A program made the position numbers and the translations under genes. 64,000 nucleotides of DNA. It comes from Marsupella aquatica (taxonomy: Eukaryota > Plantae > Marchantiophyta). Below are positions 2,421 to 48,599 of the stretch, one piece after another. The notes below the pieces were generated by a model. It did not search any database, was not told the DNA's origin, and saw only the letters and a program-made list of their open reading frames with translations. The stretch covers positions 1,429,223-1,493,222 of the forward strand of contig OZ316892.1 of assembly GCA_973895155.1 (NCBI GenBank), written 5' to 3'. Every line of letters begins with the position of its first letter. Position 1 is the stretch's first letter.

Positions 2421-2504
2421 TACCTTGGGTCGAGTTACAAAACGAATATCTCCCAACGAGAAAGAAACGGGAGGCTCATCGGAGGGAGGTTTGTTGAGAT
2501 CCAT
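2420..2504 (-). pseudogene. LTR microprotein B (family F1), truncated
   Basis: MDLNKPPSDEPPVSFSLGDIRFVTRPK matches MDLNRSPDDIPISFSLGDIRIVFRRK; its ATG is 1 nt after the ORF A stop. Confidence 0.65.
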
Positions 2505-2505
2505 C

Positions 2506-2712
2506 TCAATACAAGATAAAAATTGTGCAAGCCCAATCCTGCCCGTAAACTACATAAGGGTATACAATTGGCTCTATTGAATTTAATACCGCAGTTGCAA
2601 ATGCTTCCCCAAAGTGAAAAGTCATATGCTGGCGCATTATCTCTTTTTGGAGTACATGAATTCTAATAAGGAAAGGATTAGGGAGAGGAAAAATAGGTAC
2701 TGGTCTGGGCAT
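2506..2712 (-). CDS. LTR microprotein A (family F1, 68 aa from ATG)
   Basis: MPRPVPIFPLPNPFLIRIHVLQKEIMRQHMTFHFG...EPIVYP...W.C.IFILY aligns without gaps to ORF A at 15618, 26953 and 47365. Confidence 0.7.
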   Translation of the reverse strand: MPRPVPIFPLPNPFLIRIHVLQKEIMRQHMTFHFGEAFATAVLNSIEPIVYPYVVYGQDWACTIFILY

Positions 2713-3369
2713 TATCGTACTATCAAATATTCCATCCAACTAATTTTTATTCTAATGACAAGAAATAGAATCATTCAACAAAAAGATCATCTATTTCAAA
2801 TAAATATCATGCATTGAGTTAACTCTAAGTATATATACATGTAGACGTTTATCTTAATAGGTTGATCTTCTTTTGAATGAAAATACTATCTGAATATCCA
2901 ACTCATACAAAATACCTCTGGCCGAGCCGAAGCTCTAAGCAAGAGTGCATGAGTGGGTCTACTTCATAAGGATTTCACCCAAAAGGGAGCATATGATGTC
3001 AAGGCATTGTTGAGCACTTTCCAACTCTTTAGAACTTAATAACCATCTCCTATCAAATGACAACACTTTCTGAAGGTCCGACTCATACAAAATATCCCTG
3101 GCCGAGCCGAAGCTCTAAGCAAGAGTGCATGAGTGGGTCTACTTTATAAGGGTTATATTCATAGAAGAGATCATCAAGTCCAATGGATTTTTAAGACTTC
3201 ACAACTTAGTTGATGAAAAATGGGGAGTGAGGGGAGAGAGCCCCTCTCCTCTTTATTTACAGTGCTCACACCTCAAGCACACGGATCAAGCATGGCACAC
3301 GGATGGAAGCCATGTGTCACACATCCAAGGCAAGTAAGTGTGCTAGTACTGTAGTTACGTGAGTGGAGC

Positions 3370-3665
3370 AACTGTAGACAGTACACTGTAGTATGCACAC
3401 TGTAGATCGTACACTATAGCATGCATACTGTAGATCGTACACTATAATATGCACACTATAGATCATACACTGTAGCATGCACACTATAGATCGTACACTG
3501 TAGCATGTACACTGTAGATCGTACACTGTAGCATGCACACTGTAGGTCTTGCACTGTAGCATGCACACTGTAGATCGAACAATATAGCATGCATACTGTA
3601 GACCGTGTACTGTAGCATGCACACTGTAGGTTGTGCACTGTAGCATGCACACTATAGACTGCATA
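3370..3665. repeat. ~28-bp tandem array (TGTAGATCGTACACTGTAGCATGCACAC-like) in the U3 of LTR F1
   Basis: About ten degenerate units visible directly. Confidence 0.9.
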
Positions 3666-3743
3666 TGCGAGAATTTAAACTACTATCCTATACTACTAAG
3701 CTATACTTAGGAGGAACTTACTAAACAAAGAATCCCCATGACA

Positions 3744-6275: not shown

Positions 6276-7231
6276 CTGTCATCCATCGGGTAACCCAGCA
6301 GCACCAAAAGAATCTGTGGTGACCAACCTAACCTAATCTATATGCTAACGCTAAGGGCAATCTGTCCCTGTCAGCAACACAAGCACTCACCATGGTGTGG
6401 CATCACTCCAACATCACCAAGAGAGAAATACGTAGCACAACTAGAATGTCAGGTTGCAAACCCGGATCACTCCTATAGAATCAAGCGCCCATGCCAAACT
6501 AACATGGCGCATAAACAGAAAGCATGTGTGGAGAGGATCCAACAACAAGAAGCGGATTTACCACAACTCTCCACACCAATCAATCAAAAATACGTGAAAA
6601 TAATGTCCATATAGTTCAATGTAGGGCCTTCATAATAGGCTTCAAGAATCCTGCGTCAAATATTCAAGAATCCATCGCAAAATAGTTGAAATAGAGTAGC
6701 TAGATGAATTCAAAAGTGCATAAAACCCCTGAGGCCTCATTCCTTGGACATCAAATGTGGAAGGAAGCATGTACAATACACTACATAAGAACTAGCTAGT
6801 TAAGCGCTTGAGGGGAGGAATAGCTTTGGGATGGGTGACCTCTCACTTGTCATTATGCACCAAATCTGACACTCAAAACTGCAACACTTGCAAGTTCTCC
6901 TCACGTACCAGCAAGCTCCTGCTCCGCCCTCACGCCCCTTGTCCAGAGTAACCACGAGTTGCCTCAAAGCCTCAAAACGCCGAGATGAGCCAAAGAGTGA
7001 GCCCGCAACGCTTTGCTATGCTAGATCTAACTTTGGGTTTCGGCAATATTCGCATTTGGCCTCATCGTTCCTTCACGGAAATTGCAGGGCTGTCACCGGA
7101 TTTGACTTAAGTTCAGGTTTTGGCAACATTCACACTCGGCCTCATCGTTCCTTCACGGTGTCCGAGGATTTTTAACTACTCGAGAGGCACTGGGCCTTGC
7201 TACCTGTGCAAATTATGACTACTCACCTGAA

Positions 7232-7441
7232 CTATACAAGCACAAAAATACTCAAAGTTCCCCTTGGATGATCCCCGTAAAGTATTAGAGCTTCTTTCGA
7301 AGATACTATAACATTATACAACTCTTCTCCAAACTTTCTTACTAAGATTTCTCTACATGCTATCTTCCTTCGCACAATAATCTTCAAACTCAAGGAAGAC
7401 GTCAAATTTAATATTGGACTTGGGACCTGATTCAAATCCAT
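7232..7441 (-). CDS. LTR microprotein B (family F3, 69 aa)
   Basis: MDLNQVPSPILNLTSSLSLKIIVRRKIACREILVRKFGEELYNVIVSSKEALILY...IFVLV, homologous to ORF B at 27173. Confidence 0.7.
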   Translation of the reverse strand: MDLNQVPSPILNLTSSLSLKIIVRRKIACREILVRKFGEELYNVIVSSKEALILYGDHPRGTLSIFVLV

Positions 7442-7446
7442 CTTTT

Positions 7447-7670
7447 CTAGTACAAAATATAGATAGTACACACCCACTCTTCTTCATAAGTACCTACGAG
7501 ATATATGAGTGAAATGTTTGAATCATAACCATGATGGCAAAATCTATACCAAACTGATACATAAGCGTTTGACGCATTACATTTTTATCTAAACAATGTA
7601 ATCTAATAAAAAATGGGCTGACAATCACTCCCGGTAATCTATGCACTCTTGGCAACCCATGCAACATCAT
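7447..7670 (-). pseudogene. LTR microprotein A (family F3), 1-nt frameshift
   Basis: Manual translation: SPFFIRLHCLDKNVMRQTLMYQFGIDFAIMVM / SNISLIYLVGTYEEEWVCTIYILY*. Confidence 0.7.
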
Positions 7671-8959
7671 TCACAATCTATGGGAATAGCTAAAGCCTAT
7701 GGTATAAGTTAACCTTTGATAATATATCCTTGATACAGGCGACATAGTCATCCTTGCCAGATTTGAGTATTTAACTTAAGGTGCTCAAGTGGTGGCATAG
7801 CCCTCCATGACCATAAGAAAAATTCTCAATTCCTTCTATCATGAAAACCGGCGGTATAGCCCTCCGTTATATCAAGGCAAACCATGGACTCAACTCTCAA
7901 TAGTGGGAACATAATGCCCTATGGGAAGCAAGTTCCCTTCTATTTATACTTTGAAATGTTGACCACCCATAATTTGATAGCCAACTATTTTGTCCACTTT
8001 CTTAGCACACTATTTTGTAAAGCAGACTACCCACAATTTGCTAGTCCACTTTTTGCCCACTATCTTAGCACACTGTTTTGTAAAGTGGACTACCCATAGT
8101 TTGCTAGCCCGCTTTTTTGGCACACTATTTTATTTTGTCCTATTCTATTATCTTGGCCTACTATACTCTTTTGGCCCACTATACTTATTTGACCTATTAT
8201 ACTCATTTGGCCTACTATACTCATTTGGTCTACTATTATTTTGGTATACTATTTTATTTTTACCTATTCTATGATTTTTACCTATTCTATTCTATTCACG
8301 GAAATTGCAGGACTGTCACTTCTACTCAACAGTCAGCTTGGTTGCGCCCTCAACGCCGTTCTTTCGCGGAAACGTCGAAGCTCGATTCAACAATATTGAC
8401 CCTCATTTCCTTCACGGAAATATAGATCCACAACAATTTCAAGTTCGACGGCAACAAACTTATCAAAACAACAACATTCGTGATCATTTCCTTCCCGAAA
8501 CTCACAGATCCGCAATGTATGATTGCAGATCTATTAACATCCGCACTCAGCAGGCCAGATCTATCAACATCCATCCCTCAACAGGCTCGATCTACTTCAC
8601 AAAAATGCGGGCAACAACATACTGTCCATCAAATGGCAGCACAGATCCCAGATTGACACACTGTCTCCTTGCAAATCTGGTAAAACAATAAGCGATCTTC
8701 AACGATCTGTGATCTCTCTTCTCAAAACAGCCCGACAACAAGACACAAACTACAGCAGATCAAAATACTAACAATCTAGTCAATATGATCCGAGCTACCA
8801 CGAATCCACGCAACAGCTTCAAATAATTTCCATGAGCCGTCGCCAACTCAATCGACACCAAACAAACTTTTGTTTGTACAGTCCGCACAACAGAGTTTGC
8901 ATCTGATCTTTCAATATAATTTTCTCAACAATCGGCACAATGATCCTGGTCAACAATAC

Positions 8960-9242
8960 CTCATCGATCCCACACCAATCCGATCACACATGTATGTCGA
9001 GCCAATGTACCTTGCACTCAAGGAATCCACGCTACATAGAGAGAGCTCTCAGCCACCATAGCCACCACACAAGCTCCCTCTCCAAGGCTCAACATTGAAA
9101 GATAACCTTTCAATGCCTCACAAGAGACAACTACCCTCTCACACAAACCTAATGGAACCCTATTGGCTCCAATAGCACACATACAAAATATACATACTCA
9201 ACTAGCACTATATACTACAACAACATTTAGAATGGTGTGACA
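8960..9242 (-). mobile_element. LTR family Z-like 5' segment
   Basis: Reverse complement of 58839-~59110 (TGTCACACCATTCT...); lies upstream of the minus-strand gag at 4737-6275. Confidence 0.75.
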
Positions 9243-9329
9243 ACTCGCAAATGTCAAGCCCAGAAAAGATATGAAACTTGGCTTCCTCCTGATCAAGTGG
9301 ATTTGGATGAAGAATCTATTGATGCATTG

Positions 9330-10567
9330 GTGACAGAAGATGCAGATCCATCCTCATTACGAGAGGTCCTAGCTTCTATGGAGAAGCAACAGTGGTAGGC
9401 GGTGATGCGCATGGAAATGAAATCACTTCATGATAACAAGACTTGGGAACTCATAAGTCTACCTAGTGACAACCAGGCTGTTGACAGCAAGTGGGTGTAT
9501 AGGAAGAAAGATGGACCTATGGAGGATGCTTAGAAGATATTTAAGGCTCAATTGGTAGCCAAGGGGTTTACTCAATAGAAAAGTATAGGCTACAATGAAG
9601 TTTTTTCACCTGTATCAAAGTATTCAACAATACGTTTGCTATGTGCTCTTGTAGTTTTATTTGATCTGGTTTTAGATCAAATGGATGTTGTCACAACATT
9701 CTTATACGGATTGTTGGATGAGGTGATTTACATGAGGCAATCAGAGGGTTTTGTGCAAAAGGGCAAGGAAAATCTGGTATGTAGATTGCTAAAATCCTTG
9801 AATGTATGAATTAAAGCAGAGCCCAAGGTAGTGGAACAAGTGTTTTGATGAATTTTTGAAATACTGGATTTGTGCGAAATGTGTACGATCCATGTGTTTA
9901 CATCAGGCATGTGAACAACACAGGTTTTAAGTTTGTCATCCTTGTACTTTATGTGGATGATATGCTCATTGTAGGAAAGGATAGGGGCAAAGTTGATAAG
10001 CTTAAGGCCCAATTCAGTTCTGAGTTTAAGATGAAGGACTTGGGCATAGCCAAGAGGATCCTAGACATGGAGATTGTCAAGGATGTGAACAAAGCCAAAG
10101 TTTGGCTGACACAGAAAAGATATGCATAGAAGGTGCTCTCAAAATTTAACATGGCAGATGCTAAGGCTGTGAGTGTTCCTTTGGCAAGGCATTTTAATAT
10201 TTTTGCAGCATTTTGTCGATCGGATGCGACAGAAAAAAGTTTGATGTCCAAAGTTCCTTATGAAAGTGTTGTGGATAGTTTAATGTATCTCATGGCATGC
10301 ACCCAACCAGACATAGCTTATGCCGTTAGCAAGGTAAGCAAATACATGGCAAATCCAGGAAAAGTTCATTGGGAAGTAGTGAAATGGATTTTGCACTACA
10401 TTAGAGGTTCCACTAAGAAGGGTTTATTGTTTGATGCAAGTTCAAACAATATGAAAGTGCTTCAAGGTTATGTGGATGCAGATTACGTAGGTGATCTGGA
10501 TAAGAGGAGATCAACAACTGGATATATATTTACACTTGCTGATGGATGCATTAGTTGGAAGTCTATT
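9330..10567 (+). pseudogene. pol: Ty1/copia RT-RNase H remnant
   Basis: QMDVVTTFLYG, LYVDDML, MKDLG and GYVDADYVGDLDKRRSTTGY motifs, with many stops and frameshifts. Confidence 0.92.
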
Positions 10568-11859: not shown

Positions 11860-12227
11860 TGTCGTGATAATTCAATTATTCATGATGAAATCATTATCAT
11901 TAAGTATATTATTTAGTATATAGATTATGTTTATATTTTGTTACGGGGTAACTAAATATTTTGACTATTACTTATGTGCATGCAAGGTAAGCAATTATGC
12001 AAACCACAAGGTGCATGCACAAATTGTTTTATTTGCATGCATTAGACTTTGTTTTATGTGCATGCAAGGTGAACAAATGTGCAAGCCACAAGGTGCATGC
12101 ACAAATTGTTTTAGATGCATGCAAATTGTTTTATTTGCATGTATTAGTTGTTTTATGTGCATGCAAGGTGAGCAAATGTGCAAGCCACAAGGTGCATGCA
12201 CAAATTGTTTTAGGTGCATGCAAATTG
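11860..12227 (+). mobile_element. Truncated U3 of LTR family F2
   Basis: TGTCGTGATAATTCAATTATT start and TGCATGCA-rich array, as at 14768 and 26081. Confidence 0.9.
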
Positions 12228-14764
12228 TCTGGACCGCGATCAAGAAACCCGACCATGCGGACTATCTCAAGGAGCATCAGTTGGAGTAGTTCGCTCACTT
12301 GCTATGGAGACCTAACGCAGCCGGACCAAGGAAGGTTTATGAGTTCATATCAAACTTTGACATTGACGCAGCGATCACCAAGGTTTCAGGGCAAACCTTA
12401 TCACTTATGGAGCATCGGTTGGCACATATCTTTTGTCTGCCAACCGGGCCGGTGTCAGTTGAACTCCAAATTTGGGATAAAGAGTATACACCCCAGCACT
12501 TCAAACCCGAGGATAAGACGGACAACGGGTACAAGCAGGGGTTATGCACCAACTTAGTCTATATGGAGCGGCTTAACTTCATACAGACTACCTTACACAT
12601 GATTGAGCCACAATCCAAGATCTCTCTCTATACGATCGTACAGGTGGAACAGTACAAACGATGGAACTGGGCCCAATTCTTTTACAGCAAGTTCTCAGGG
12701 GAAATTAAGCGGGCTCAAGGAGGTATGTCTATCGGGGGATGGACCTACCTGGGAAGCCACATCGCCATCATCCTCACCTGGTACAAGGCGCGGCGAGAGG
12801 CCAGGGGAAAGAATATCGCCACCTCAGCCCCAACTAGTGTCACCCCCGGTCCGGAGGAGGCTACCCCGAGCGAACAGACTACCACGCCTCAGGCAAACCA
12901 CGGGCCCGTGGCCCCGACAAATATATCGCCACCTCCTCCCATTGAAATTACACCGCCCCTTTCCGTCGAGCCTCTGCTACCCCTGGTACAACCACCCCCA
13001 ATCCCTCCACCACCTGAAGAAACCTTCCCCTCCCCATTGCAGACTACGGAGGAGCTCGCCGCCCCGCTCGAGGAACCACCGGTGCCCGAGAGGATGGAGG
13101 ATTACCAAGTAGCCCTGGGGACCATGGCCTACGACCTGGTCCAGAAGTTTAGTCAGACTATGTTAGGGGAGCTAGCGACGTACATCGGACAACCGGTCTC
13201 GGCGTACTTCCAACAAGCCTTCTTCATGTTAGAGCATCAACCGCGGATCGTAAGCCGCTTGGAGGAAGAACTCATGGCAAAGGGGAACGAGATCGGGCGC
13301 CTCCAAATGCTAGAAGAACACCTCGAAAAGGAGGCCACTACCCGCCGTGAGGAGTTAGTCCGCACCATTGAACAACGGGATGGACTAAGCCAAGAGTTGA
13401 GCACGGCGCAAGCAGATCTTAAGAAGCTTGATGACACCGTGCTTCAATTGCGCTCAGAATCCTCGGCTTGGGTTACCAGCCTTATCGACCTCAACAACCA
13501 ACTTCTGCAGGCAGCTCAACAGGTGGCTAGTCTCTCCGCCGAGCAAGATAAATTGCTGGCGCAGGACTAGAACCATCGTGACTCCATCGGCCAACTCAGC
13601 CTAGAGGTGGCATGGCTCCAGACCAAGGCCGACGAAGCTACAAACGAGGCAGAGGAGGCGGTACAGGATAACAAGGCCTTGCAGGATCACATTACCCTAC
13701 TCGTCCTCCAGCGGGCAAGACCTGGACCCACCTCTAATCAAGGCGGCTCGAGGTCTCGCCCCAACAAGAAGACAAACCCTGGTCCGACCACAACACGCAC
13801 GTAAGGGGTGGTTAGCGAAGGGTGTGAACAGGCGCCGCGCGAGGCAGTTGAGTCAGCAACATCTTTTTTATTAGGCTTAACGACAGAATGGCTATCATTA
13901 GGCATCGATTAGCGGCACAGTAGGAATAATTAGGACAAGGGCAGTTAGGATCAGCCGATGTAGGATAGAGTCCATTAACAGACTAGAATTTTGGTCAGTA
14001 GACTTAGCTACTGCCACCCCGGTCAGAGATAGTGCGGCCGGTTAGTCAGAAGGTAGTTATTCAATAGGCATTACCCCGGGAGGTAGTATCCTCTGGTTTT
14101 TTTCCGCAAACGTACTATTTAGGCTTCCCCTTCCCGCTGTGGGAGGGGGAGAAGGCTTAGTTATCTTAGCGCAAGAAAAAGCGAGGCACGGGAAGTCCCG
14201 GCTTGAGTAGGGTCAGAGTGCACTAAGGAGTGAGAATCAGAGTTGAGCTTGCGGGGCAAGTGCGGGGTGGGGCTTCGTAGAGACTGGGCATCAACTGCCG
14301 TTAGGCATGCTAACCCCCTTAGAAGTTGAGTCAACTATGTAAATTGATTCTTCATTGAGTAAATATAGTCTTTTCCCTTTGATTCTACCGCGAGTAACTG
14401 GTGTTGTGTGTATGCTTTGTCTGGGCAAAGGCGTCATTTCAAGGGACGTACCGGGTGCGGACTAATGGTAGGGATTGCCACCAATTGCATGTCATAAGGT
14501 TTTGTCGCGTCGATGGCTTGAAAGCCCCAAGCCGGGAGTTAGTCTGAGTCACTAACTGTGGGAATATTCCAACGGTGGAAAACAAATATACCTATGATTA
14601 ATGCGAGTTGTGTAAGTATCATACCAATAAGTATATCGACTTAGCCCGACTTAGGGCTAATTAGGACAACTACACACCTCCTTGCCGAACCCTCACCCCT
14701 ACTGGTGGTTGCGGTTGCCCCAGGGAAATAACTCGGATTTAAGGCCCGGATTATGGGCGCGACA
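12228..14764 (+). mobile_element. 3' part of giant LTR family Y, carrying the C-terminal two-thirds of its ORF (to 13804)
   Basis: Overlaps in sequence with 57193-57705; conserved domain, then Pro-rich linker and coiled coil; ends ...GGCGCGACA. Confidence 0.8.
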
Positions 14765-15617
14765 CGTTGTCATGATAATTCAATTATTCATGATGAAATC
14801 ATTATCACTAAGTATATAAGTAAGTATATAGGTTAGCTTTATATATTGTTACGGGTAACTAAATAATTTGACTATTATGTATGTGCATGCAAGGTAAGCA
14901 ACTATGCAAACCACAAGATGCATGTGCAAATTGTTTTATTTGCATGCAATAGTCATTTTATGTGCATGCAAGGTGAGCAAATATGCAAGCCACAAGGTGC
15001 ATGCACAAATAGTTTTAGGTGCATGCAAATTATTTTATTTGCATGCATTAGTTATTTTATGTGCATGCAAGGTGAGCAAATGTGCAAGTCACAAGGTGCA
15101 TGCACAAATTGTTTTAGATGCATGCAAATTGTTTTATTTGCATGCATTAGTTGTTTTATGTGCATGCAAGGTGAGCAAATGTGTAAGCCACAAGGTGCAT
15201 GCATGCACAAATTGTTTTAGGTGCATGTATTAGTTGTTTTACTTGCATGCATTATTTGTTTTGATTACAATAGTACTAGCACACATTCCTACGTTGGATG
15301 TGTGCCACTTGGCTTTCATCCAAACATTTGGGCGTAATCCATGCCCTCATGGATTCAATATAAATAAAGTGGTGAGGGACACTCTCTCCTCATTCCCACA
15401 TTTTAATAATTTCCGCGTCGAAGTGATTCTCTTTTATTCTCTCATCTTTCTCTTCTATTCTTTGCCTTACGTACATAGTAGTGGGGCATCCTTTGGCCCG
15501 GATAGCAAAGGAATGAGTGGTAGACTTATAGATGAGACCTTAGGGAACAAGGTCTTTTTGGAAACTTAGGGGTGGGGCATCCTTTGGCCCGGATAGCAAA
15601 GAAACAAGAGAATCATT

Positions 15618-15833
15618 ATGAATCCAGGAGGGAGAGATATCCCTAATCTTCCCCTTTGTAATCCATTTTTGGTTAGAGTCCATCTTTTAGACAATCCATC
15701 CATGAGGCAACATTTAACTTATCACTTTGGAGCTCAATTTGCAGCTGCTGTTATGAGTTCTAATGAGCCAATAGTATACCCAATAGTGTCTTACCGAGAG
15801 GAGTGGGAGTGCATTATCTTTGTCCTTTATTGA
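15618..15833 (+). CDS. LTR microprotein A (family F2, 71 aa)
   Basis: Intact ATG-TGA; conserved across four LTR families. Confidence 0.72.
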   Translation: MNPGGRDIPNLPLCNPFLVRVHLLDNPSMRQHLTYHFGAQFAAAVMSSNEPIVYPIVSYREEWECIIFVLY

Positions 15834-15837
15834 AGTC

Positions 15838-16047
15838 ATGGATCTAAATAGGAGTCCAGATGACATTCCTATCTCATTTTCTCTTGGAGATATTAGGATT
15901 GTATGTCATAGAAAAATTAGTTTTCGAGATGGTGTTGATCCGCAAGTATGGTGAAGTAGGATTTAATAGTATATATTAGTTTCACTTGAACCTTTCTTAA
16001 CACCCACCACCTTTCTTACAAGAGTTATCATTTTGGTTTTAGTGTAG
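15838..16047 (+). pseudogene. LTR microprotein B (F2, 5' LTR), frameshifted
   Basis: Matches 27173-27379 except for +1 (~15931) and +2 (~15971) insertions. Confidence 0.7.
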
Positions 16048-16123
16048 AACTTATGAGCATGCAAGGTTGACTTCATAAGAGCCAACATGCTCTTACCAGA
16101 AAACACGGTCACCCGGACATAAG

Positions 16124-16141
16124 TGGCGACCATACTGGGGA
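16124..16141 (+). other. Primer-binding site, tRNA-Arg-like
   Basis: TGGCGACCATACTGGGGA just after the 5' LTR; resembles the tRNA-Arg PBS TGGCGACTCCACTGGGGA of Tat/Ogre-type gypsy elements. Confidence 0.7.
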
Positions 16142-17990: not shown

Positions 17991-20900
17991 TGTCACGTCA
18001 TTAGCCTTGGCCTTAACTCGGGCTTCAGCTTTAAACGGGCACCTCCTTCGTAAATATGAGGGTTCGGGCAGGGAGGGAAGAATATAATGCACCTAATTCA
18101 CTTAAACTAGCGCTAAGTGCGCCTACTGTTAGATACGGACATCTCCTAGGTATGGTTTGTGTTCCGCCGCCGGAACGTACCTTAGTCGATAATAGGATCG
18201 ACCCCGGCTTAAGGACTTCTAAGCCTTTGTGTTGTCCGCCTTCGATCCGGATTCTATGATACAGGTCCTCAACCCGTGCTTGCAACCACATACCTGCAAG
18301 CTGCACCTCGTGCACGACTCGGGTAGTGCGTTTGGCCCGGCGTTGTCACCTATACACGAGATTCACACACACATACACGCGCACAAGCATACAATCTCGA
18401 TTTACACGAAGGAAATAATGGGAAAGGATTTTACTACATAGGGGACATGTGCGTACACTTGGTTGACCCGACAACTCTGGAATAAACAGGTCAAGGCCGA
18501 GAGAGTATACTACAACGGAGCCCGGCTCCGCACTCACCCGGCGAGCTTAGTCCTACCCCCTCCCTTTGGTACTCTTTCACTCCCAGAGGTCGGGACTCCC
18601 CGCACATACCACGGATATCCAACTCTGAGACTAAAAACCCCCCCTTGCCTCTACCGAGGGGTGCACTAAATACTAAGGGCCGAGGAACGGAGTGTCCTCC
18701 CGCCCGAAGATTTGCTGACTTAGGTCCTAACTAATCTGACTGTCAGGCCGAAAAACGGTTGTGTCTTATTAGAAGATCCTAATCTATGCAGGCTGGACAG
18801 CATGGCAATGTTGTTGTAACTAAGGCAGGTGCCTGTCCCAATAGCCTGACTTAGCTATTCCTAACCCTATTCTATTCCTACTCCGCCGCTAATGCCTGGC
18901 ACGCTTGCCAGAGCCGCCCGAGTAGGAGCGGCCATCCCACTGCTTACGAAGTCTGTGTTGTCCGCCTTGAGGAGCTGGACCTGGTCTAGCAGAGATTCGT
19001 TCTCTCGCTTTGCCGCGTCCGTCTCCTCCGCTGCCTCCTGGCATGCCTCCTCCAGCTGCTGGGCGTCGCTCGTCAGCTTGCCCGCCAGCTGGTCCTGCTT
19101 CTCGGCCTCGGTTTGGAGTCGCACCACTTCGGCCTGTAGCGTGGCTATCTCCGCAGTGTCCGGCTGGGCCCGTTCTTCGGCCTCCTCCAGGTCTTTCTGC
19201 CAGATGACAGTTTGATTCTTCAAACTGTCAATCTGGTTTCGGAGTCGTGCAATCTCGGCCTCATTCCCAGCTTTGGCCTGCTCGGCTAGGGCGGTAAGGG
19301 CGTGCGCCTTTGCTAACAACTCGTCGGCGGCTGCAACTTTGGGTCGTAGTTGCAGAAGCTCAGCCTCTTGAGCTGCAACTTCATTCTTTAAGTATACGGA
19401 CTCCACCCGGTACCGCTCTATCCTCTGAAGGGCCTCTGACTGGGCCCGACCTGCCTTTACTGCGGCAACTAACTCCTGATTGAAGAAACAGGCTACCTTC
19501 CGGGCCATGAACTCCTCGGTATCCCGGGCAATTTGATGAGAGAAATCTTCCAGAAGCCCGTTCAGAAATGTACCCGGTACGAAGAGTTCCGGGTGGTCCA
19601 GGTTGTGCCTGTCCGGAGTTGGGCATGGGCAGACGTCAACACACGCGGGGGCCGAGGCAGTGACATCTAGCCCTGGGGATGTAATGTTGGAAGGGGCTGG
19701 AGTGTCCTCTTGCAGCAATGTTCGGTTCTCCGGAATAGCCACCGGTGGGTCTTTGGGAGACCCGGGCTCGAGTAAGACCTCCGCTGTACCGACTTCTGTA
19801 CTTAGCCCGGCTTGTTGGATCGCATCTATGGTTGCGATAACCGACCCATCCGGTACCTCCTCGGTTACGACTACAGCTACTTGTGGGGTGGGTGAAGCTT
19901 GCGTGTCCGCTGGACTTCAGGCCTCGGGTTGGGGCCCTCTCTCCAAGGCCAGAAAAACCCACCTAGCTGGGACTAGCTTTGTAACGTTGACACGGGGAAG
20001 GGTTTGTCGATCAAACTGAGCATACCACTCAAGAATGATCTCGATGTGGCTAGCAAAATACGCCTTCCCGCCAATGTACAGCGTCTTCCTTCGACGCTCC
20101 ATCTCTTCATGGAATTTCTTAGCGAAGTACGACGCCCACTTCCTAGGTCGATAGTTCTCGACCTGGATAACCTGGGCGGCGGAGATCTCCCCCCGGGGTT
20201 CCATCATGTGGAGGGTGTACCTTTGGAACTCCAGTCGCTCAGCTATCTCGGGGATGAGGCAGGTCCTCATCATGAACCCGTTGTCCACTACTCCCTCTAA
20301 GGGAAAACTCGAGGATTGGTACTTGGCTCCCTTGCCCCCGGGAGCCCGTGATTCGACTCGATGGTCATCTTTGGGTAATCCGAAGATCATCTTGAGCCGT
20401 TCTTCCGTGAGGGACATATTCCTTCCCCGCAACCGAGTATGCTGACGTGCGTCATCATAATTCTTGACGAATTCTGTCATGTCCTCCCCGTAGTACCTGC
20501 AAGTGTTCTAGGGGAGAGAGGCGAGGTGCTCAAATCCCTGAGTCTTCAGGTACACCGCATGCTTGGGATGGAGGATGTTCTTATGCACATTTTCCCCCAT
20601 GCGGTGCATTGTCACCTTGGCCACGGCTACCATGGCCAATGGTAACCCGGATGCAGTGGTGGGTTCCTTCCTCTTCTTCCCCCGTGACTGGCTCGGGGAG
20701 GGTGACACCTCCCCATCCTCTCTATCGGGCATAGGTAGTGCTACCGCCGTTAATATTGAGCCCGGGGCGGCCACGGTCACCGTGTTGTCTGTTGGAGCCG
20801 CTCCTTGGGTCCGAGCATGGAGAAGGGACGATGTAGTATCGGCCCCTTGAGTATTTGCTCCTCTGGGCCGCCTGAGCAAGGGTGGGGTAGCCTCGTCATC

Positions 20901-22001
20901 GTCGCTAAGGTCCACAGCGTTGATGATGGAGCGTACTTGTACTGCTGGCGGGACGATCGGCGGTGGGGGTTGGCTAGGCTGAGACTGAGACTAAGACTGA
21001 AGCTGAGCCTGAGCCTGAGTCTGCGTTGGTGTAGGTACAGGTATGGGGTCGACTGGGTCGGCGTCGGCGGTTGCGGGTCTAGTTCCCATGAAGCTTTGCA
21101 GGTGCTGGTAGAAGTTCTCCGAAGCAAGTGCAGAGGACCTTGTCGAACGGGTAGTGCTGGACTCGCTGTTGATGATAGCCCGAACCTAAGCAGGGATGTG
21201 GTCGAAGTGATGTCGTTGCAAGTCGATCGTACCCGGGATATTGAAGACCTCGTTCGAAAACCGAAGCAATGCTTCCCAGAAACTGATATATTTGTCTTCG
21301 TTGAAGAAGTACCCAGATACCTCTGCTGGTTGGTAAAGCTCGCTTTGAGACGGGTAGTCAAAGTTAAGGATGTAGTGGCGTCGTCCTGCTAGGCGGATGG
21401 CTCTCTCGTACTCGCATTCGATTTCGTATCGGTGCGGGTTGGCGTGTTTCAATGAGTCGGCCAAGTGTCTTCCGGTAGATAGGAACTGCGTCTAGAATCG
21501 AATGGCCGAACTGGAGAGGATCGTGTGCGACATTCAGAGGAGATAGTAGTGGCGACTAAGAGTGAACAAGAGAGCTGGGGTCGAAGCTGGCGCGTGGACT
21601 GATGGACTGGTGCACTACAAAGGGTCGGCTCCCTTTTTATACCTTGAGGGCTTGTCGATCCTCCGACATCTCCTTGTTGCCTATAGGCTGAACCGTTCAC
21701 GCTTGTAGTGTGTCGGCCACTTCGCCGGTCTGAGTCACCGCGTGTCAGTGGACGCCTCTTAAAGTTTGTTATACGGACCCGAGGGAGGGGGCCCCTCCAC
21801 GCTCGTAGCCCGGGCGTGCGAATGGCGACGCGCCGCCAGCCCGAACATGAATTCCCCTTATTGACTAATGATTTCCTACTCATAATGGATACCTAAATAC
21901 TGTCGTTATGCTAATCATAGCGGCCTAAGATACCCCTAACGCGCGTGCTAAGCACGATTTAGACCAAATTACTCATCACTCGCCGTACCGGCGGTATCAC
22001 A
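17991..22001 (-). mobile_element. 4011-bp solo-LTR-like element (family X) carrying one long ORF
   Basis: TG...CA ends; perfect 5-bp TSD GGAAG (17986-17990, 22002-22006); no terminal direct repeats and no pol; TATAAAA on minus near 21635. Confidence 0.88.
18867..21533 (-). pseudogene. ~888-codon LTR-encoded protein (N-domain, plant-retrotransposon accessory-ORF-like domain, coiled coil)
   Basis: ORFs 21464, 20915, 20480 and 19742 share one frame from ATG 21533 and are broken only by five nonsense codons; motif EFVKNYD...LRGRNMSLTEERLKMIFGLP. Confidence 0.8.
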
Positions 22002-22099: not shown

Positions 22100-25000
22100 G
22101 GTCATGTGTGCCTCTACCATGAAGAATCTTGAATTGGGAGATGGCAAGGAGTCCATCTTGGAACCATTTTAGGCAAGAACTTGCTCAATGGTGGAAATGG
22201 AGCTTGTGGGGATGGAGGGCAAAGCCCAAGCATTGATTGATACTGGATCAAAGGTAAATCTAATGTCAAGAAACATCTATGATCTTGGGCAATGGATGGT
22301 TGATTGTGATACCCAGTGGTCGGTAAACTCAATCAATCGTTCAAAGAATACACTTTGGGGAGGATGTCCAGGAGTTCCAGTGAAGGTTGGCAGTGTGATT
22401 GAGCCAACTAACATCTTTGTGCATGATAGCTTACCCTATGACTTGATTTTAGGGCAGCCTTACATTACTCAAGCTCGATTGAAATACAAGGTTTTGCCAG
22501 ATGGTACTCATATGGCAAAGGTGAGGAGTCGAGATGATTTGCGGATTATCCAATTTCCTATGGTGAAACCTGGACATTGGAGGAATCGAAAGGAGTTGAG
22601 AGGACCTGAATCCAAGGAAGGAAATGAGGATTTCCGGAAGGCGTCTCATTAAACAATGCGGGATGGCGGGGTGCCATCTCTGATGACCCGCTGATGGCTT
22701 GGAATATGAATAGTTTGTTGGCAAGCTCGTTTGAAGGTGAAGGCTTGCATTGACGAATTTCTTATGTGAAAGTGTGTGAAACTACTAGAAAATTCCAAAA
22801 AAAAATTGCGAGGATTGAGGATACTATGCAAATACATGGATTGCTAAAGGAATGTGAGGAGATTGAAGGCCTTCTAGATGAAGAAGGAGTGGTAGTCTCT
22901 TTGGAAGAAGTAATTGAAGGTCTTTCAGAGGGGAGAACTTCTATGGAAATCAGTCATGAGTTGTATGGTGAATTATCTCAATTTGTTGAGGTCAACACCA
23001 AGTACAAAACGGTGGACAAGAAAGTGAGACCAGCGGCACTTCCTTTGCCTTTGGATGCTAAGGAGGTTCTGGAGAAGGCAAGGAAGGAGACCAGTCTTAG
23101 AGATCGGACTAAGATTGGCCATAAATTCACAGAGGGGACCCTTAATCAACTAAGGATTGGCGATGATGGGCTGTTGACAAGGAGAGAAAGAGAGAAGTTT
23201 CGACAAATGATTGGTGAACATGGGTAAGGCTTTTGTCTTTTATCCTGAAGAGATGGGATGTGTGGATCCTAGTGTAGTTACTCCTATGGTGATTTTCACT
23301 GTCCCTCATATTCCTTGGGACTTGAAACCTATTCCGGTGCCCAGGGCTTTGTTGCCTAAACTTGTTGATCTATTGAAGGAGAAACTTTTCACTAGGATCT
23401 TGGAAAGAGCAGATGCACCTTATTCTAATCGTTGGTTTACCATTCGCCAAAAAAATGGTAAACTTAGATTTATTCAGGATATGCAACCACCCAACAAGGT
23501 TATTATTCGCAACACTGGGATAGGACCTATAGTTGATGAGTTTGCAGAAGAGTTTGTCGGTAGAGTCATCTATTCATGTGGTGACCTCTATTCAGGCTAT
23601 GATCAGTTTCAGTTGGCTCAAAGTAGTATAGATATCACTACAATGAGGACACCTTTGGGGCTACTTCGTATATGTACTTTGCCTCAAGGAGCAACCAACT
23701 CAGTGGCACACATGCAGAATGCCATGAATAAGGTACTACATTGTTTTATTCCAGAGAAGACTCAACCATTCCTTGATGATATGCCAATCAAGGGGTGCTT
23801 GGAGGCAAATAAGGATGAGACTATACGAGAAGATGGGTTGCGACAGTTTGTATGGAAGCACATTCAGGATGTGAAGGCCATCTTGAAGAGACTGATTGAG
23901 GTTGGGCTCACTCTTTCTAGAGAAAAATCTTCATTTGGGCTCCATGAAGTCCTGATTGTGGGACAGATTTGTGGAGTTGAAGGAAGGAGGCCAAATGAAG
24001 GAAAAGTGGATGCAATCAATCAGATGAAAGATTGCAGAACATCTTCAGAGGTGCGAAGATTTCTTGGTGCTTGCTTATTTTATAGGGTTTAGATTCCACA
24101 CTTTGCACATATTGCTGATCCCTTGTATGGATTACTAAAAAGAATGTGCAATTTGTTTGGACTGAGGCACACAAGGAGGCTATGCAAAGATTAAAGGAGG
24201 CATTACTTAGCCCCCTTGTTATACGTCCCTTATGCTATGATGGGAGGCCAATCATTGTTACTGTCGATTCAAGCCCTGATGCTGCTGGATGGGCAGTAGG
24301 GCAATATGATGAAGAGGAAAGGAGAATTGCATCAAGGTTTGGGGCTAAGGTCTTTTCAGCAAGACAAAGACATTATCCTCAAATCAAACGAGAATTATGG
24401 GGTGCAAGAACAGCTTTGTGTCAAGAAAAGGTCTACTTGATTGGAGCACAAATAATTCTTGAGATAGATTGTTTATCACTTTTAGGGATGATTGCTAATT
24501 ATGATACTCCAGATATTGCTATGCTACGTTGGATAGCTTTTATCAGAATGATCAATCCTGAGCTTCGACATATTGCTGGAAAAGATAGCCCTGTAGCTGA
24601 TATGCTGTCAAGAGCTCGATATGATCATACTGAGACATCTGAAGCAGTTCAAGTGATGAGTGGAGAATTTGAGATTTTACAATTTCAAGAGAAACTATAT
24701 TCTGGACAGTTGCTTTTGATTGGGAGGTACCTTAGTACTCTTCAAAGGTCTTCTGAATTGACAGATGATGAGTTTCAGCGATTATGGAAGAAGGCTTACA
24801 AGTTCATGCTGAAGGATGGTGTCTTATGGAGAAGATCTTTGAAAAAAGGACATGTTCCATGTAGAGTGCTTGATACTGAAGAGGAGAAGAAAAAGGTCTT
24901 GTGGGACTCTCATGATGCAGTTGAAGCAAGACATCGAGGAGTTAGAGCTACTTATGAGCGGATTCAGAGATGGTATTGGTGGTCAGGCATGTATGTGGAT

Positions 25001-26040
25001 GTGAAATCATATGTTGGGTCTTGTAAGACTTGCCAATATTACTCCAAAGTTTGATTTAGGGATGGGCTTAATCCTACTAGTCCTTTATCATTACATTTTC
25101 AGTGGGCAATAGATGTGGTGCACATGCCATTGGGAGTTAGAGGAGCAAAGTACCTTGTCCTTGCAAGAGAAGATTTATCTTCTTATGTGGAAGGAAGAGC
25201 TTTGACCTCTAATACTACTGAAGCAATATGCAGGTTTGTACTTGAAGATATCATTGCACGTCACGGTTATTTTGTGCAAATGAGAGCAGATAGAGGAGAA
25301 CTCAATTCGGATGAGGCTGCAGATTTCTTTGATCGATTCAACATCAAGCTCAAACTTACTACTGCCTACAACCTGGAAGGCAATGGGAAGATTGAGCGAG
25401 GGCACCCACCGATTATAAATGCCTTGGTAAAGTCTTGCCAAGGAAAAGCATCAATGTGGCCAAACCTTTTACCGTTTGCTCTTTTAGCATATCGGATGAC
25501 ATGCACTTCAACAACAGGATTTGCACCTGCCGAATTGGTCTGTGGACATTTACCTTTGATGCAGATTGAAGAGAATGTTCAAAGCTTGAGAATAATTGAT
25601 TGGGAAGATGACATCACTCGAGAGGATTTATTGGAACGAAGGATTGAGCACTTTAGCCAGACCAAGGAGAAAATTGAGGAGGCTTTATTAAGGCTCGTGA
25701 GAAGAATAAGGAGCAATTTGATAAGACTCATCGTTTGAGACCAATTCCAATCCAGAGTGGAGATTGGGTATTGATCTATGAAGGAGGACTTGAGCAACAA
25801 CATTCTACCTTAAAGAAGTTTGCACGTCATTGGAGATGACCATTTGTTGTTGAAAAAGTCAATCCTAATGCAACCTACTTGGTTAGAGAACTGGATGGAG
25901 CAATTCATCGCACTCCCTATGCAGGAAAGCGAGTGAAATTTTTCAAGCGGCGAACTCACTTTATGGCAAAAGAGAAAGAGTTTGAACCAGATGACTTTGA
26001 AGCTTTGGATGAGGATGAAGATTATCGTGATCTATAGGTG
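22100..26040 (+). pseudogene. pol: G2 pol (PR, RT, RNase H, integrase), decayed
   Basis: ALIDTGS, DLYSGYDQ, LPQGATNS, FLDD, VDSS, H..H/CKTC zinc motif, RADRGE, GKIERGH. Confidence 0.93.
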
Positions 26041-26952
26041 TGGTGCATCCGGAGGTTGCACAGATTTGGTAGGAATGATATGTCGTGATAATTCAATTAT
26101 TCATGATGAAATCATTACCACTAAGTATATAAGTAAGTATATAGGTTAGCTTTATATATTGTTACAGGGTAACTAAATAATTTTACTATTATGTATGTGC
26201 ATGCAAGGTAAGCAACTATGCAAACCACAAGATGCATGCACAAATTGTTTGGATGCATGTGCAAATTGTTTTATTTGCATGCAATAGTCATTTTATGTGC
26301 ATGCAAGGTGATCAAATATGCAAACCACAAGGTGCATGCACAAATAGTTTTAGGTGCATGCAAATTATTTTATTTGCATGCATTAGTTATTTTATGTGCA
26401 TGCAAGGTGAGCAAATGTGCAAGTCACAAGGTGCATGCACAAATTGTTTTAGATGCATGCAAATTATTTTATTTACATGCATTAGTTGTTTTATGTGCAT
26501 GCAAGGTGAGCAAATGTGCAAGCCACAAGGTGCATGCATGCACAAATTGTTTTAGGTGCATGCATTAGTTGTTTTACTTGCATGCATTATTTGTTTTGAT
26601 TACAATAATACTAGCACACATTCCTACGTTGGATGTGTGCCACTTGGCTTTCATGCAAGCGTTTGGGCGTAATCCATGCCCTCTTGGATTCAATATAAAT
26701 AAAGTGGTGAGGGGCACTCTCTCCTCATTCTCACATTTTGATAATTTCCGTGTCGAAGTGATCCTCTTTTCTTCTCTCATCTTTCTCTTCTATTCTTTGT
26801 CTTATGTACATAGTAATGGGGCATCCTTTGGCCCGGATAGCAAAGGAATGAGTGGTAGATTTATAGATGGGATCTTAGGGAACAAGGTCTCTTTGGGAAC
26901 TTAGGGGTGGAGCATCATTTGACCCGGATAGCAAAGGAATAAGAGAGTCATT

Positions 26953-27168
26953 ATGAATCCAGGAGGGAGAGATATCCCTAATCTTCCCATTCGTAACCCA
27001 TTTTTGGTTAGAGTCTATCTTTTAGAAAAGCCATCCATGAGGCAGCATTTAACTTATCACTTCGGAGCTCAATTTGCAGCTGCTGTTATGACTTCTAATG
27101 AGCCAATAGTATACCCAGTAGTGTCTTACCGAGAAAAGTGGGAGTGCATTATCTTTGTCCTTTATTGA
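26953..27168 (+). CDS. LTR microprotein A (F2, 3' LTR, 71 aa)
   Basis: Intact; same family as 15618. Confidence 0.72.
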   Translation: MNPGGRDIPNLPIRNPFLVRVYLLEKPSMRQHLTYHFGAQFAAAVMTSNEPIVYPVVSYREKWECIIFVLY

Positions 27169-27172
27169 AGTC

Positions 27173-27379
27173 ATGGATCTAAATAGGAGTCCAGATGACA
27201 TTCCTATTTCATTTTCTCTTGGAGATATTAGGATTGTATTTCGTAGAAAAATTAGTTTCCGAGATGTGTTGATCCGTAAGTATGGTGAAGTAAGATTTAA
27301 TAGTATATTAGTTTCACCTGAACCTTTCTTAATACCCACCACCCTTCTTACAAGAGTTATCATTTTGGTTTTAGTGTAA
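27173..27379 (+). CDS. LTR microprotein B (F2, 68 aa)
   Basis: MDLNRSPDDIPISFSLGDIRIVFRRKISFRDVLIRKYGEVRFNSILVSPEPFLIP...; ATG 4 nt after the ORF A stop. Confidence 0.72.
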   Translation: MDLNRSPDDIPISFSLGDIRIVFRRKISFRDVLIRKYGEVRFNSILVSPEPFLIPTTLLTRVIILVLV

Positions 27380-27451
27380 AACTTATGGGCATGCAAGGTT
27401 AACTTCATAAGAGCCAACATGCTCTTACCAGAAAACACGGTCACCCGGACA

Positions 27452-32200: not shown

Positions 32201-33850
32201 ACATATTTATGAATACCCGACTCACTTTGCGAGAGAGAATTGTCCTATGTGAGAAAGTGGGTTTCTTTTTCAAGTTGTGGCGTCTGTGGTGCTTCCATGG
32301 TAATCATGCAGTGGGAGGTAACACATAGAGTATAACTTTTACCAAGAGCTACATCCCTATGCAAACTTTCCTGGACATACAGATATCAGTCCATTTTGTA
32401 GTCTTCTTGATAATTCAATTTAGGACTAATTTCCGTCATCTACTAGTGCCATTACATCTGACCGGGTCAGATGCTTGTGAACAGTTTTTTTCCAAGGTAG
32501 GGGGTATGCGGGGTAATGAGCGGAACTATGATATAGCTCAGAATTAATAGAGTATGCAACCTCCCTTAATAGGTTGGCTGCAATGGATCTGGCAGAGGGA
32601 ATAATGGGTGTTGGACAGAGCCATAAAAGCATAAGAGCATTTGGATGACTCTTCATCCTGCAAAAGAGGGGACTGATATAGAGGCAGACCAATCAGATTA
32701 CACAGGGATTGAGACTGATGCAGATGTCGTCCTGGCTTTGCAAGAGGGGTTCAAATTGGCTCAAACTGCAGCCACTGAATTGCAAATGAATCCTTCAACA
32801 TCTGCCAACAACAAACTATGGTGGAATTCACCATGGAAAGTTGAGGAGAAAGACACCAAGTTTGGTGGTTGGTGTAATATCAATGTGGACACCTTGGTAG
32901 ATGTGCGGGATACTCTTCCTCTTGAGTCCACCCCTAGAACCACCTCCACTGAAAATGTACTTGGAATTGCATCATCATCTACACCAATATCAGCCCCAAT
33001 GTCTAGCCCAAGCTTACAGGCGGGTGTCATCCCTACTGTCATTCCTACTGGCGAGGAGAGGGAGGTCCATAGGGAGGTAGACCCAGATTTAGAGGTGGTT
33101 GGGGCTGAACTGGAGGCTACCATGAATGTGATATATTCAAACTTGGTTTATGGGGCGCCCATACAGGAAGTGTGTCCAACTGTCACCCATAATGGACGAG
33201 AGATCTACAAAAGTACGTTGGTAAGTCAGCTTGTTGGGAACCCTCATCTCAGTAAGGACCGACTGACCCGAGTGAAGCAGAGTATATACTTCAATAACTT
33301 GGTGGATAAACCCACATTTTGTGAAGGAGTTGCAACTATGTTCATGACAGTCGGCAGTGATTGTGGGGTATTATTTTTGGATGAAACAGAAGAGGTCAGA
33401 ACTACTCGAAACACAGAGGCCAATTCTAGAGCATAGAAAGGGAAGGGTCAACGGGGAAAAAAGAAACAGTCGGTGCAGAATCCTAGAAGGCCAAGAGGTG
33501 AAGCAGTACCTGCATCTTCTACTCCTTTTCCAAAATATGGTTGGTGGATTGGTAGAGTATAGAGCATACATCAGAAGTATGGGGGTACCATTGCCAGATC
33601 AAGAGAAGCACTAGATCTACTAGATAGACCTGGTTCTGAAGCAGGGTGTCAAGTTGTCTTCAATTGGTTTACTCCTATTGGCACTCGTAGGCATAAATTT
33701 GCCTACAATATATGTGATCCTCAAACCATCGACATGGACTGTGTCATATCAACAGTCAATTTCACAGTTGATCCCTTGTATCGTTCAGTTTTTGAGTTAC
33801 ATCCAGATGATGTACTTGCCCTCGACAATTTTGTAAGGAACAACATAGTG
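29246..33850 (+). pseudogene. P-element/THAP9-like DDE transposase with N-terminal zinc fingers and an intron, decayed
   Basis: Motifs LAEDET, HASDGD, QDFIHNGKK and SDACEQFFS in P-type order; C2H2-like fingers (CNFC...HCSGLSH); GT-AG intron 31288-31406 restores the frame (TVK-WLPK). Confidence 0.65.
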
Positions 33851-35425: not shown

Positions 35426-35596
35426 TGTCCGGGGGTTTTAAACTACTCGAGAGGCACTGGGCCTTGCTGCCTGTGCAAATTATGACTACTCACCTGAACT
35501 ATATAAGCACAAAAATACTCAAAGTTTCCTTTTGGATGATCCCCGTAAAGTATTAGAGCTTCTTTCGAAGATACTATAATGTTATATAACTATTCT

Positions 35597-46524: not shown

Positions 46525-47156
46525 TGCCTCAAAAAGTTTTATATACTCTACATCACATGTGCAGCGGCCATGTTCTCAAGTAATCACAACAAGTTGTAGG
46601 ACAAAGAATAGGCACTTACGGAGTGTGTTGGTTGCTTGCCGAGGGTATGGATGATGCAAGTACAATGAAGCTGGATCAAGAATCCTGAAATGTCATTTTA
46701 CACTTTGTGTTGGTACCAATAATACCCGAACAATATAATCTTAATATTGTTCTATTTTTTATTCTTTTGTTTAGTACTTTGAAAGTAACAATGATAAAGG
46801 GGAAAGACAACTATGTGAAATATCACACGCCAAGCCGAAACTCCAAGCATGCGCACAAAAGTTTTCTTTTCCTTCAAGTTGTTACATTCCTACTCCAATC
46901 TATGTGAAACCTATAATTTAGATATTATTTGTAAATGTTGTGAAAATATTTACAAGGAATCGAGATATCCATGTAGAGTATCACACGCTGAGCGAAAACT
47001 CTAAGCATGCGTACATAAAAATCTCTATCCTTGCAAATTCTCCACTCAACTCACAAATGATTCTAAACCGTTAAGGCGATGTCTGGGTGACCGTGTTTTC
47101 TGGTAAGAGCATGTTGGCTCTTATGAAGTTAACTTTGCATGCCCATAAGTTCTATA

Positions 47157-47360
47157 CTAAAACCAAAATGATAATTCTAGTAACAAGGGTAGTGGGTACA
47201 TTAAGAAAGGTTCAGGTGAAACAAAAATACTGTTAGACCCTATTTCACCATACTTGCAGACCAACACATCACAAAAATTAGTTTTCTTACGACATATGAT
47301 CCTAATATCTCCAAGAAAAAATGAAACAGGAATATCATCTGGACTCCTATTCACATCCAT
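47157..47360 (-). CDS. LTR microprotein B (F4), C-terminal frameshift
   Basis: MDVNRSPDDIPVSFFLGDIRIICRKK...SPEPFL, then out of frame relative to F2. Confidence 0.6.
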   Translation of the reverse strand: MDVNRSPDDIPVSFFLGDIRIICRKKTNFCDVLVCKYGEIGSNSIFVSPEPFLMYPLPLLLELSFWF

Positions 47361-47364
47361 GACT

Positions 47365-47580
47365 TCAATAAAGGATAAAGATAATGCACTCCCACTCTTC
47401 TCGGTACGACACTACTGGGTATACTATTGGCTCGTTAGAAGCCATAACAACAGTTGCAAACTGAGCTCCAAAATGATAGGTTAAATGTTGTCTCATGGAT
47501 GGTTTGTCTAAAAGATGGACTCTAATCAAAAACAAATTATGAAGGGGAAGATCAGGGATAACTCTCTCTCCTGGATTCAT
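47365..47580 (-). CDS. LTR microprotein A (F4, 71 aa)
   Basis: Intact homolog of 15618-15833. Confidence 0.72.
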   Translation of the reverse strand: MNPGERVIPDLPLHNLFLIRVHLLDKPSMRQHLTYHFGAQFATVVMASNEPIVYPVVSYREEWECIIFILY

Positions 47581-48599
47581 GATGACTCTCCTATTTCTTT
47601 GCTATCCGGGTCAAAGGACGCCCCACTACTATGTTTAAGACGCAAAGAGCTTCACAACCTTGAATGATAAACACTACAGAATGAGGGGAGAGTGCCCCTC
47701 ACCACTTTATTTATAGTGCACACCAAGAGGGCATGGATCAAACCCAAGCACTTGGATGAAGGCCAAGTGGCAAGCATCTAATACCTAAGAGTGTGCTAGT
47801 ACTATTCATAGTTGGTGAAACTACTTTTAATAGGTGGAACTACCATGCGTTGGTGGAACTACTGTGCGTTAGTGGATCTACTATGCGTTCACTTGATGAA
47901 ACTACTATGCATTGATGGACTTACTATGCGTTGGTGATACTACTATGCGTTGGTGGAACTATTGTGCGTTGGTAGAATTACTGTGCGTAAGTAAAACTAC
48001 TGTGTGTTATGGAATTATTGTAGTTTGTGGAACTACTCATATGCATTGGTGATACTACTATGCGTTGGTGGAACTATTGTGCGTTGGTAGAATTACTGTG
48101 CGTAAGTAAAACTACTGTGTGTTATGGAATTATTGTAGTTGGTGGAACTACTCATATGCATTGGTGAAACTACTGTAGTCCATTAATGTAGCTAAAGAAG
48201 TTAATAAAGTCTAAATTTAATAATCTAACTACTAAACTACTTATATAATCTATAATCTATTAAAACAAACAATTTTTTTATAACTTAAGAGAAAATCACG
48301 ACAATGATATTAGGTTCTCTCATATGAAATACCACACGCCAAGCATAAGCTCCAAGCATGCGCGTGCGTGAGAACCATAATACCCCTCCAAATTCTTAAA
48401 ATAAATTTATAAATGATACAACATGCAAGACAAAAGAAAAGGAAATCAAAAACTCACAAAAAGAAACCAAAACATAAGCAACAAACACAACAAATAGATA
48501 ATACAAAGAAAGAATGAAACAAAGAAAGAAGAAGAAAACTTACCAAAAACCCTCTTCCTACAAAAAGGAAATGAGGAGGAAATAGATTAGAAAATGAGG

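Follow-up and report, generated by a model that had tools for sequence, protein, structure and literature searches.

The LTRs of plant retrotransposons are regarded as non-coding, and a solo LTR counts as debris. ORFs in or overlapping an LTR are familiar from retroviruses, namely MMTV sag and HIV nef. These are single, larger and located in U3, upstream of the promoter, whereas the two coding ORFs described here, A and B, are paired and lie downstream of a TATA motif. The nearest analogue of this pair appears to be sORF1/sORF2 of the Drosophila MDG1 group, which likewise are two short sense accessory ORFs ahead of gag and are under selection, but which are located outside the LTR and have other predicted structures (10.1101/2025.03.14.642691). 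The additional ORFs of plant LTR retrotransposons resemble A and B in being conserved and without cellular homologues; they differ in their location, which in the accessible text is internal to the element and for the most part between pol and the 3' LTR (PMC7264820). VANC of VANDAL elements offers a model for the targeting of tandem repeats by a TE protein. It is similar in being a TE-encoded accessory anti-silencing protein found beside fast-changing tandem repeats, but it belongs to a DNA transposon (PMC5735166); A and B showed no Pfam similarity, and no array motif common to their LTRs was found.

Phygy, a non-chromovirus clade of Ty3/gypsy elements that was described from a moss, has 4-nt NCGN target sites, a size of 8628 (7656-9968) nt and a PBS that is mostly tRNA-Trp (Neumann et al. 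2019, PMC6317226). That survey, the main one of extra ORFs, counted ORFs of at least 250 codons, so that genes of 70 codons were invisible to it (PMC6317226). No word beginning with "ORF" occurs in the accessible text of a paper on moss retrotransposons (PMC7466625), and the literature searched, in which coverage of subscription papers and bioRxiv supplements was incomplete, held no description of an A-B cassette.

The window, meaning the whole 64-kb stretch of DNA that was analysed, is eukaryotic and rich in repeats, among them remnants of LINE, copia and gypsy elements. Both A and B were found to lie inside the LTR of a Ty3/gypsy retrotransposon, downstream of a TATA motif, a context that was absent from an earlier note on this DNA. 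The element is composed as follows.

14768..16119, plus strand: upstream LTR (L1), 1352 nt, TG...CA, with A and B in its last third; 94% identical to 26081-27451
14925..15254, plus strand: CATGCA-rich 99-nt tandem array in the U3 part of L1, from TRF and k-mer counts
15359..15368, plus strand: TATA motif with overlapping AATAAA, the putative promoter ahead of A
15618..15833, plus strand: ORF A of L1, 71 aa, open; predicted beta-alpha-alpha-beta-beta
15838..16047, plus strand: ORF B of L1, frameshifted near 15931 and again near 15970; its start lies 4 nt past the A stop
16124..16141, plus strand: PBS-like site by sequence, beginning with TGG, 4 nt past L1
16308..17967, plus strand: decayed, probably gag-like region, from its position and a CxxC...H...C knuckle-like motif
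17991..22001, no strand assigned: nested 4-kb TG...CA insertion of another element by sequence, with a 5-nt target duplication
22173..25738, plus strand: decayed pol with protease-like ORF, RT, RNase H and integrase in Ty3/gypsy order (Pfam RVT_1, RT_RNaseH_2, Integrase_H2C2, rve)
26081..27451, plus strand: downstream LTR (L2)
26953..27168, plus strand: ORF A of L2, open; shares 89% identity with A of L1
27173..27379, plus strand: ORF B of L2, intact, 68 aa; same predicted fold as A

The TG...CA ends of the LTRs, the PBS-like site and the RT-RH-INT order of pol identify a Ty3/gypsy LTR retrotransposon. Decay has affected gag as well as pol in this copy, and a Pfam search with the gag-like region returned no match. 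L1 and L2 have different outer flanks, so the copy is either a recombinant or made up of two halves. No matching pair of target duplications was seen among the flanks of the LTRs that carry A and B, and NCGN was observed at 7 of 8 flanks, the exception being the 5' flank of L3. Subtracting the 4016 nt of the nested insertion from 12684 gives an element size of 8668 nt (8.67 kb), and both this size and the flanks are consistent with the Phygy clade. Judging by insertion sites, size and Ty3 domain order, the host element is probably Phygy-like, which would imply a bryophyte-like host organism; it differs in its extra ORFs, which are unlisted for the clade in the accessible text of the survey (PMC6317226).

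Six A-B cassettes, on four LTR types, are present in the window. The remaining four are all on the minus strand.

47080..48303, minus strand: L3, solo-LTR-like; 19-nt array in U3; open A at 47365-47580, frameshifted B (near codon 54) at about 47152-47360
2421..3743, minus strand: L4, truncated LTR; 14/28-nt array in U3; open A at 2506-2712, B truncated to roughly its first 28 codons
41385..42400, minus strand: L5, upstream part of an LTR, upper end approximate; A from 41727, with a frameshift near its start
35426-35596, minus strand: rest of B of L5, which is split by a Ty1/copia insertion at 35597-41384
7159..8290, minus strand: L6, LTR of the L5 type, upper end approximate; A from 7670 with a frameshift mid-way, B open at 7231-7441

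The U3 arrays of the four LTR types are unrelated to each other (99, 19, 14/28 and 18/64 nt). The order of the genes is fixed, A being followed by B, and B starts 1-5 nt behind the stop of A in all six cassettes. Within the window A is open in 4 of 6 copies and B in 2 of 6; the intact 68-aa copy of B reported at 27173 was confirmed at 27173-27379. The extra bases near 15931 and 15970 that interrupt B of L1 are absent from other genomic copies. Hundreds to roughly 1900 contig pieces per genomic run match the LTR (1257 and 1887 were counted), and the LTR family is thus abundant. The Ty1/copia element in B of L5 appears young, as its 168-nt LTRs are 99% identical and it holds an open ORF of 1548 aa at 36123-40769. 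A further LTR of the L1 type at 11860-12228 is truncated to U3 and carries neither A nor B.

The tight bicistronic order, the paralogy of the two genes and their presence on every LTR would fit the layout of an addiction module, in which one paralogue is harmful and the other neutralises it, at a cost to any spore or cell in which the LTRs are silenced or lost. The broken copies in the window, four of six for B and two of six for A, were counted in favour of such a poison and antidote. Drive from a single locus would however be masked by the very many copies, and the analysis gave no sign of toxicity, which leaves this a very unlikely explanation.

A and B are very probably real coding genes. 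In 7 of 7 comparisons pN/pS was 0.35-0.54, against neutral means of 0.70-0.93. For the deep pairs L1/L4 and L4/L5, whichever transition setting was used, no more than 1.3% of the 400 simulations reached the observed values, while L1/L3 (0.22), B of L2/L3 (0.16) and L1/L5 (0.095) were not individually significant with transitions at 0.8. The five alternative frames of A contain 2-8 stops in all five copies. Among the 40 of 113 variants listed, which include lesions private to the reference copy, 28 fall in A or in codons 1-30 of B, and 16 of these are silent; on L2, 11 of the 22 listed are silent. The position of A and B in the leader ahead of gag and the disruption of B in four of six copies might suggest upstream ORFs that merely dampen translation of gag, or non-coding LTR sequence, the peptides themselves being inert. 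This reading is largely refuted: pN/pS of the deep pairs lies below neutral expectation, the larger A profile had 38 matches at E <=0.001, mostly equal in length, both proteins gave confident globular models, and gag and pol of the L1-L2 copy have decayed as well.

The relationship between A and B was evaluated by profile comparison. The 37-residue ungapped alignment on which the claim of paralogy had been based was reproduced with 9 of 37 identities and a BLOSUM62 sum of 31; as a single pair it is marginal, since 50 of 2000 shuffles of B scored equally well. The hhalign probability of the A against the B profile rose with depth, from 88.4% (6 x 9 sequences) over 93.8% (17 x 9) to 97.1% (42 x 15), the last with an E-value of 4.9e-11 over 61 columns and a score of 53.0 compared to a maximum of 21.3 among 100 shuffles. 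The real score was reached by none of 200 column shuffles and none of 150 shuffles of five-column blocks, and reversed profiles gave probabilities of 0.4% and 1.1%. Database searches returned one relative for A as a single query, seven for B as a single query and 12 for the A alignment. The B half of a natural read-through protein, P0038, was also scored by the A profile (two stretches; 24.4 bits), and the most intermediate protein, P0059, reached 63 bits against the profile of A and 29 against that of B.

In a tree of 53 rows (42 A, 11 B), built on few columns and with rows below 55 aa and five near-copies of B omitted, A and B fell on opposite sides of one branch with 99/99 support; the stem branch of B is long, at 1.25 changes per column. 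Identity between A and B within a cassette is 23-33% and therefore lower than that between the A copies of different cassettes (38-82%), which places the duplication before the split of these LTR families. A and B are thus almost certainly diverged duplicates of each other. The test that the earlier note had named as able to refute paralogy, a comparison of profile score and predicted folds, was run and returned a significant profile match and the same layout in both proteins. This match, the predicted secondary structure being in register and the 99/99 branch support its view that a single small fold underwent tandem duplication.

Linkage of the two genes was also observed in other sequences. 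Three A/B pairs of database proteins have longest contigs of equal size, which suggests that A and B are located on one contig, and A reads into B in P0038, P0052 and P0061. The distant A type P0046, of which P0074 is a cluster-mate, contains a B-like ORF in its +1 frame (0 of 200 shuffles; one of 14 tests). Besides these two, five other independent read-through extensions of A type were tested, and a B-like shifted frame was found in none of them; B is in frame in P0038 and P0061 and absent from P0055, P0065 and P0068, and some lineages may accordingly have A alone.

A comparison of secondary structure between separate AlphaFold2 models of A and B shows a strand, a pair of helices and a hairpin whose residue numbers correspond. 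In A (pLDDT 75) the elements are strand 18-24, helices 26-37 and 39-46 and strands 52-59 and 63-70; in B (pLDDT 82) they are strand 19-24, helices 26-37 and 39-47 and strands 52-58 and 61-67, with an additional strand at 12-16. The hydrophobic C-terminal segments that had been described are present in both proteins and were modelled as the last beta-strand. The best 19-residue hydropathy window is 0.99 in A and 1.82 in B, where it comprises the last 19 residues. Membrane anchors were rejected because the C-termini are modelled as beta-hairpins and A lacks a membrane-length segment. A fusogen of the MDG1-type sORF2/FAST kind, with one transmembrane helix and a polybasic tail, was rejected as well on account of the low hydropathy of A and of the C-terminal, tail-less, hairpin-forming hydrophobic stretch of B. 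The description of B as much more basic than A holds for pI (10.2 compared to 5.8), but net charge is just +3 compared to -2; the family medians are +2 for B (n=15) and 0 for A (n=39). Basic positions common to both paralogues are R20 (59% in A, 93% in B), K26 (79%, 100%) and R30 (71%, 87%), and the C-terminal end of A is strictly conserved at P55, Y59, W63 and L70.

KH, ribbon-helix-helix and winged-helix domains are nucleic-acid-binding folds and were considered as candidates for A and B. Pfam searches with A and B gave no match, and a family search with 42 A-type members gave nine single weak matches, the best at E 0.011. The best E-value in a PDB sequence search was 0.53, the ESM Atlas held no usable match for A or a relative of B, Rfam returned nothing at gathering score over L1, and metagenome scans returned zero loci. 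Fold searches with these small models reached at best Z 3.4 for A (rmsd 3.3, 53 aligned) and Z 3.2 for B (rmsd 5.2, 54 aligned), seven chains being common to both VIA lists, and Foldseek with the B model gave best E-values of 1.4 in PDB and 0.055 among viral entries; for models of this size the lack of a fold match does not equal a new fold, and the proteins may belong to unlisted families. A and B are accordingly described as small, soluble-looking members of a family without a database match.

With a rough probability of 0.4, A and B are a tandem, LTR-borne accessory pair that shares one predicted fold and acts together on the RNA or DNA of the element itself. A and B would be the first two cistrons transcribed from the LTR promoter, with B translated through reinitiation after the stop of A. 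The two chains would form a pseudo-symmetric heterodimer by contact between the hydrophobic edge strands at their C-termini. In it, R20, K26 and R30 of both chains, together with R24 and R35 of B, would touch nucleic acid and thereby promote expression or replication of the element. Suggested by the tight linkage of the genes and the three shared basic positions, the heterodimer is mildly favoured, and nucleic acid as the target is put forward tentatively. Predictions of the A:B complex scored 0.00 in two runs in which alignments were unused and the partner fold was uncertain, and these count neither for nor against. The TATA motif at 15359, some 260 nt ahead of A, is retained in L2 and L3. 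Between TATA and the start or core of A there are 2-16 ATGs in the leaders of L1, L2, L4, L5 and L6 and zero only in L3, so that plain scanning to A would need splicing or another start. A 41-nt block at 15473-15604 is doubled in the leader of L1 and L2 and present as a single copy in L3; the extra segment brings short upstream ORFs ahead of A.

The 72-nt tail past B is the most conserved part of the LTR, with 2 of 72 differences between L2 and L3 compared to 33 of 154 in the leader. On this pattern of conservation it is a candidate nucleic-acid target, the LTR ends being constrained by integration as well. The U3 arrays are wholly different between L1/L2 and L3 despite 83% identity of A, and no 6-mer is repeated in the U3 arrays of all four LTR types; a VANC-like array target is therefore not evident. 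Downstream of the CATGCA-rich, RY-like U3 array a block at 15290-15325 with a G-box-like core is conserved in L1-L4. RY and G-box elements together are typical of ABA- or desiccation-responsive promoters.

Nucleic-acid binding is weakened by B being mildly basic and A neutral, and by the conserved P55/Y59/W63/L70 end of A, which resembles a protein core or a protein interface more. The pair could instead bind and block a protein of the host, such as a factor of silencing, RNA decay or chromatin, and make no contact with nucleic acid. The low net charge of both proteins, the conservation of the hydrophobic and aromatic C-terminal hairpin in A and the independence of A/B conservation from the U3 arrays agree with such a role, as do accessory TE proteins of Arabidopsis, which in the accessible text have more predicted host contacts than core enzymes (PMC13547354). 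Against it, the non-core residues common to both paralogues, R20, K26 and R30, are basic, and the analysis points to no host partner. Taken alone this explanation is doubtful, and a host-protein target was judged nearly as likely as the element's own nucleic acid.

Alternatively, A and B might be structural or movement helpers of virus-like particles, or separate homo-oligomers with split roles, like the unrelated MDG1 sORF1/sORF2, which they match in being two small same-strand ORFs ahead of gag (10.1101/2025.03.14.642691). The long stem branch of B suggests a change of role, and the hydropathy of up to 1.82 in its last 19 residues would suit such a function, but A has no membrane-length segment and both C-termini are modelled as beta-hairpins, which makes this improbable.

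Given the location of A and B in the LTR, solo LTRs would likewise hold the promoter together with the two genes, and could serve as a source of the proteins in trans. In the furthest-reaching form of this proposal, every LTR, solo LTRs included, would make a heterodimer, of a small alpha/beta fold that is new, which binds element RNA or DNA and sustains the family in trans, apparently dead solo LTRs thereby being helper genes; as a whole this is unlikely. What is described here is a microprotein family without a database match, present as a tandem pair inside plant LTRs, whose paralogy is well supported. Where an LTR contains such a conserved cassette, two protein genes are gained with every insertion and with every solo LTR. 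Since A and B are small, soluble-looking and without a family, determination of structure, binding assays and moss reporter tests are straightforward, and such tests would bear on self-regulation of plant retrotransposons or on their resistance to silencing.

Other features of the window were observed as well. Three long ORFs at 30056-33436 are without a Pfam match and are probably leftovers of another transposon. Four LTR ends of the A-B type (12228, 27452, 3743 and 35426) adjoin the GC-richer element family of the 17991-22001 insertion or its companion repeat, which suggests preferred nesting, perhaps via CG-centred target sites. Within that insertion, a long but interrupted ORF on the minus strand, with a coiled coil at its end, spans 18867-20990 and has related ORFs at 12290-13570 and 56713-57735; the insertion may be a second case of a gene within a large LTR.
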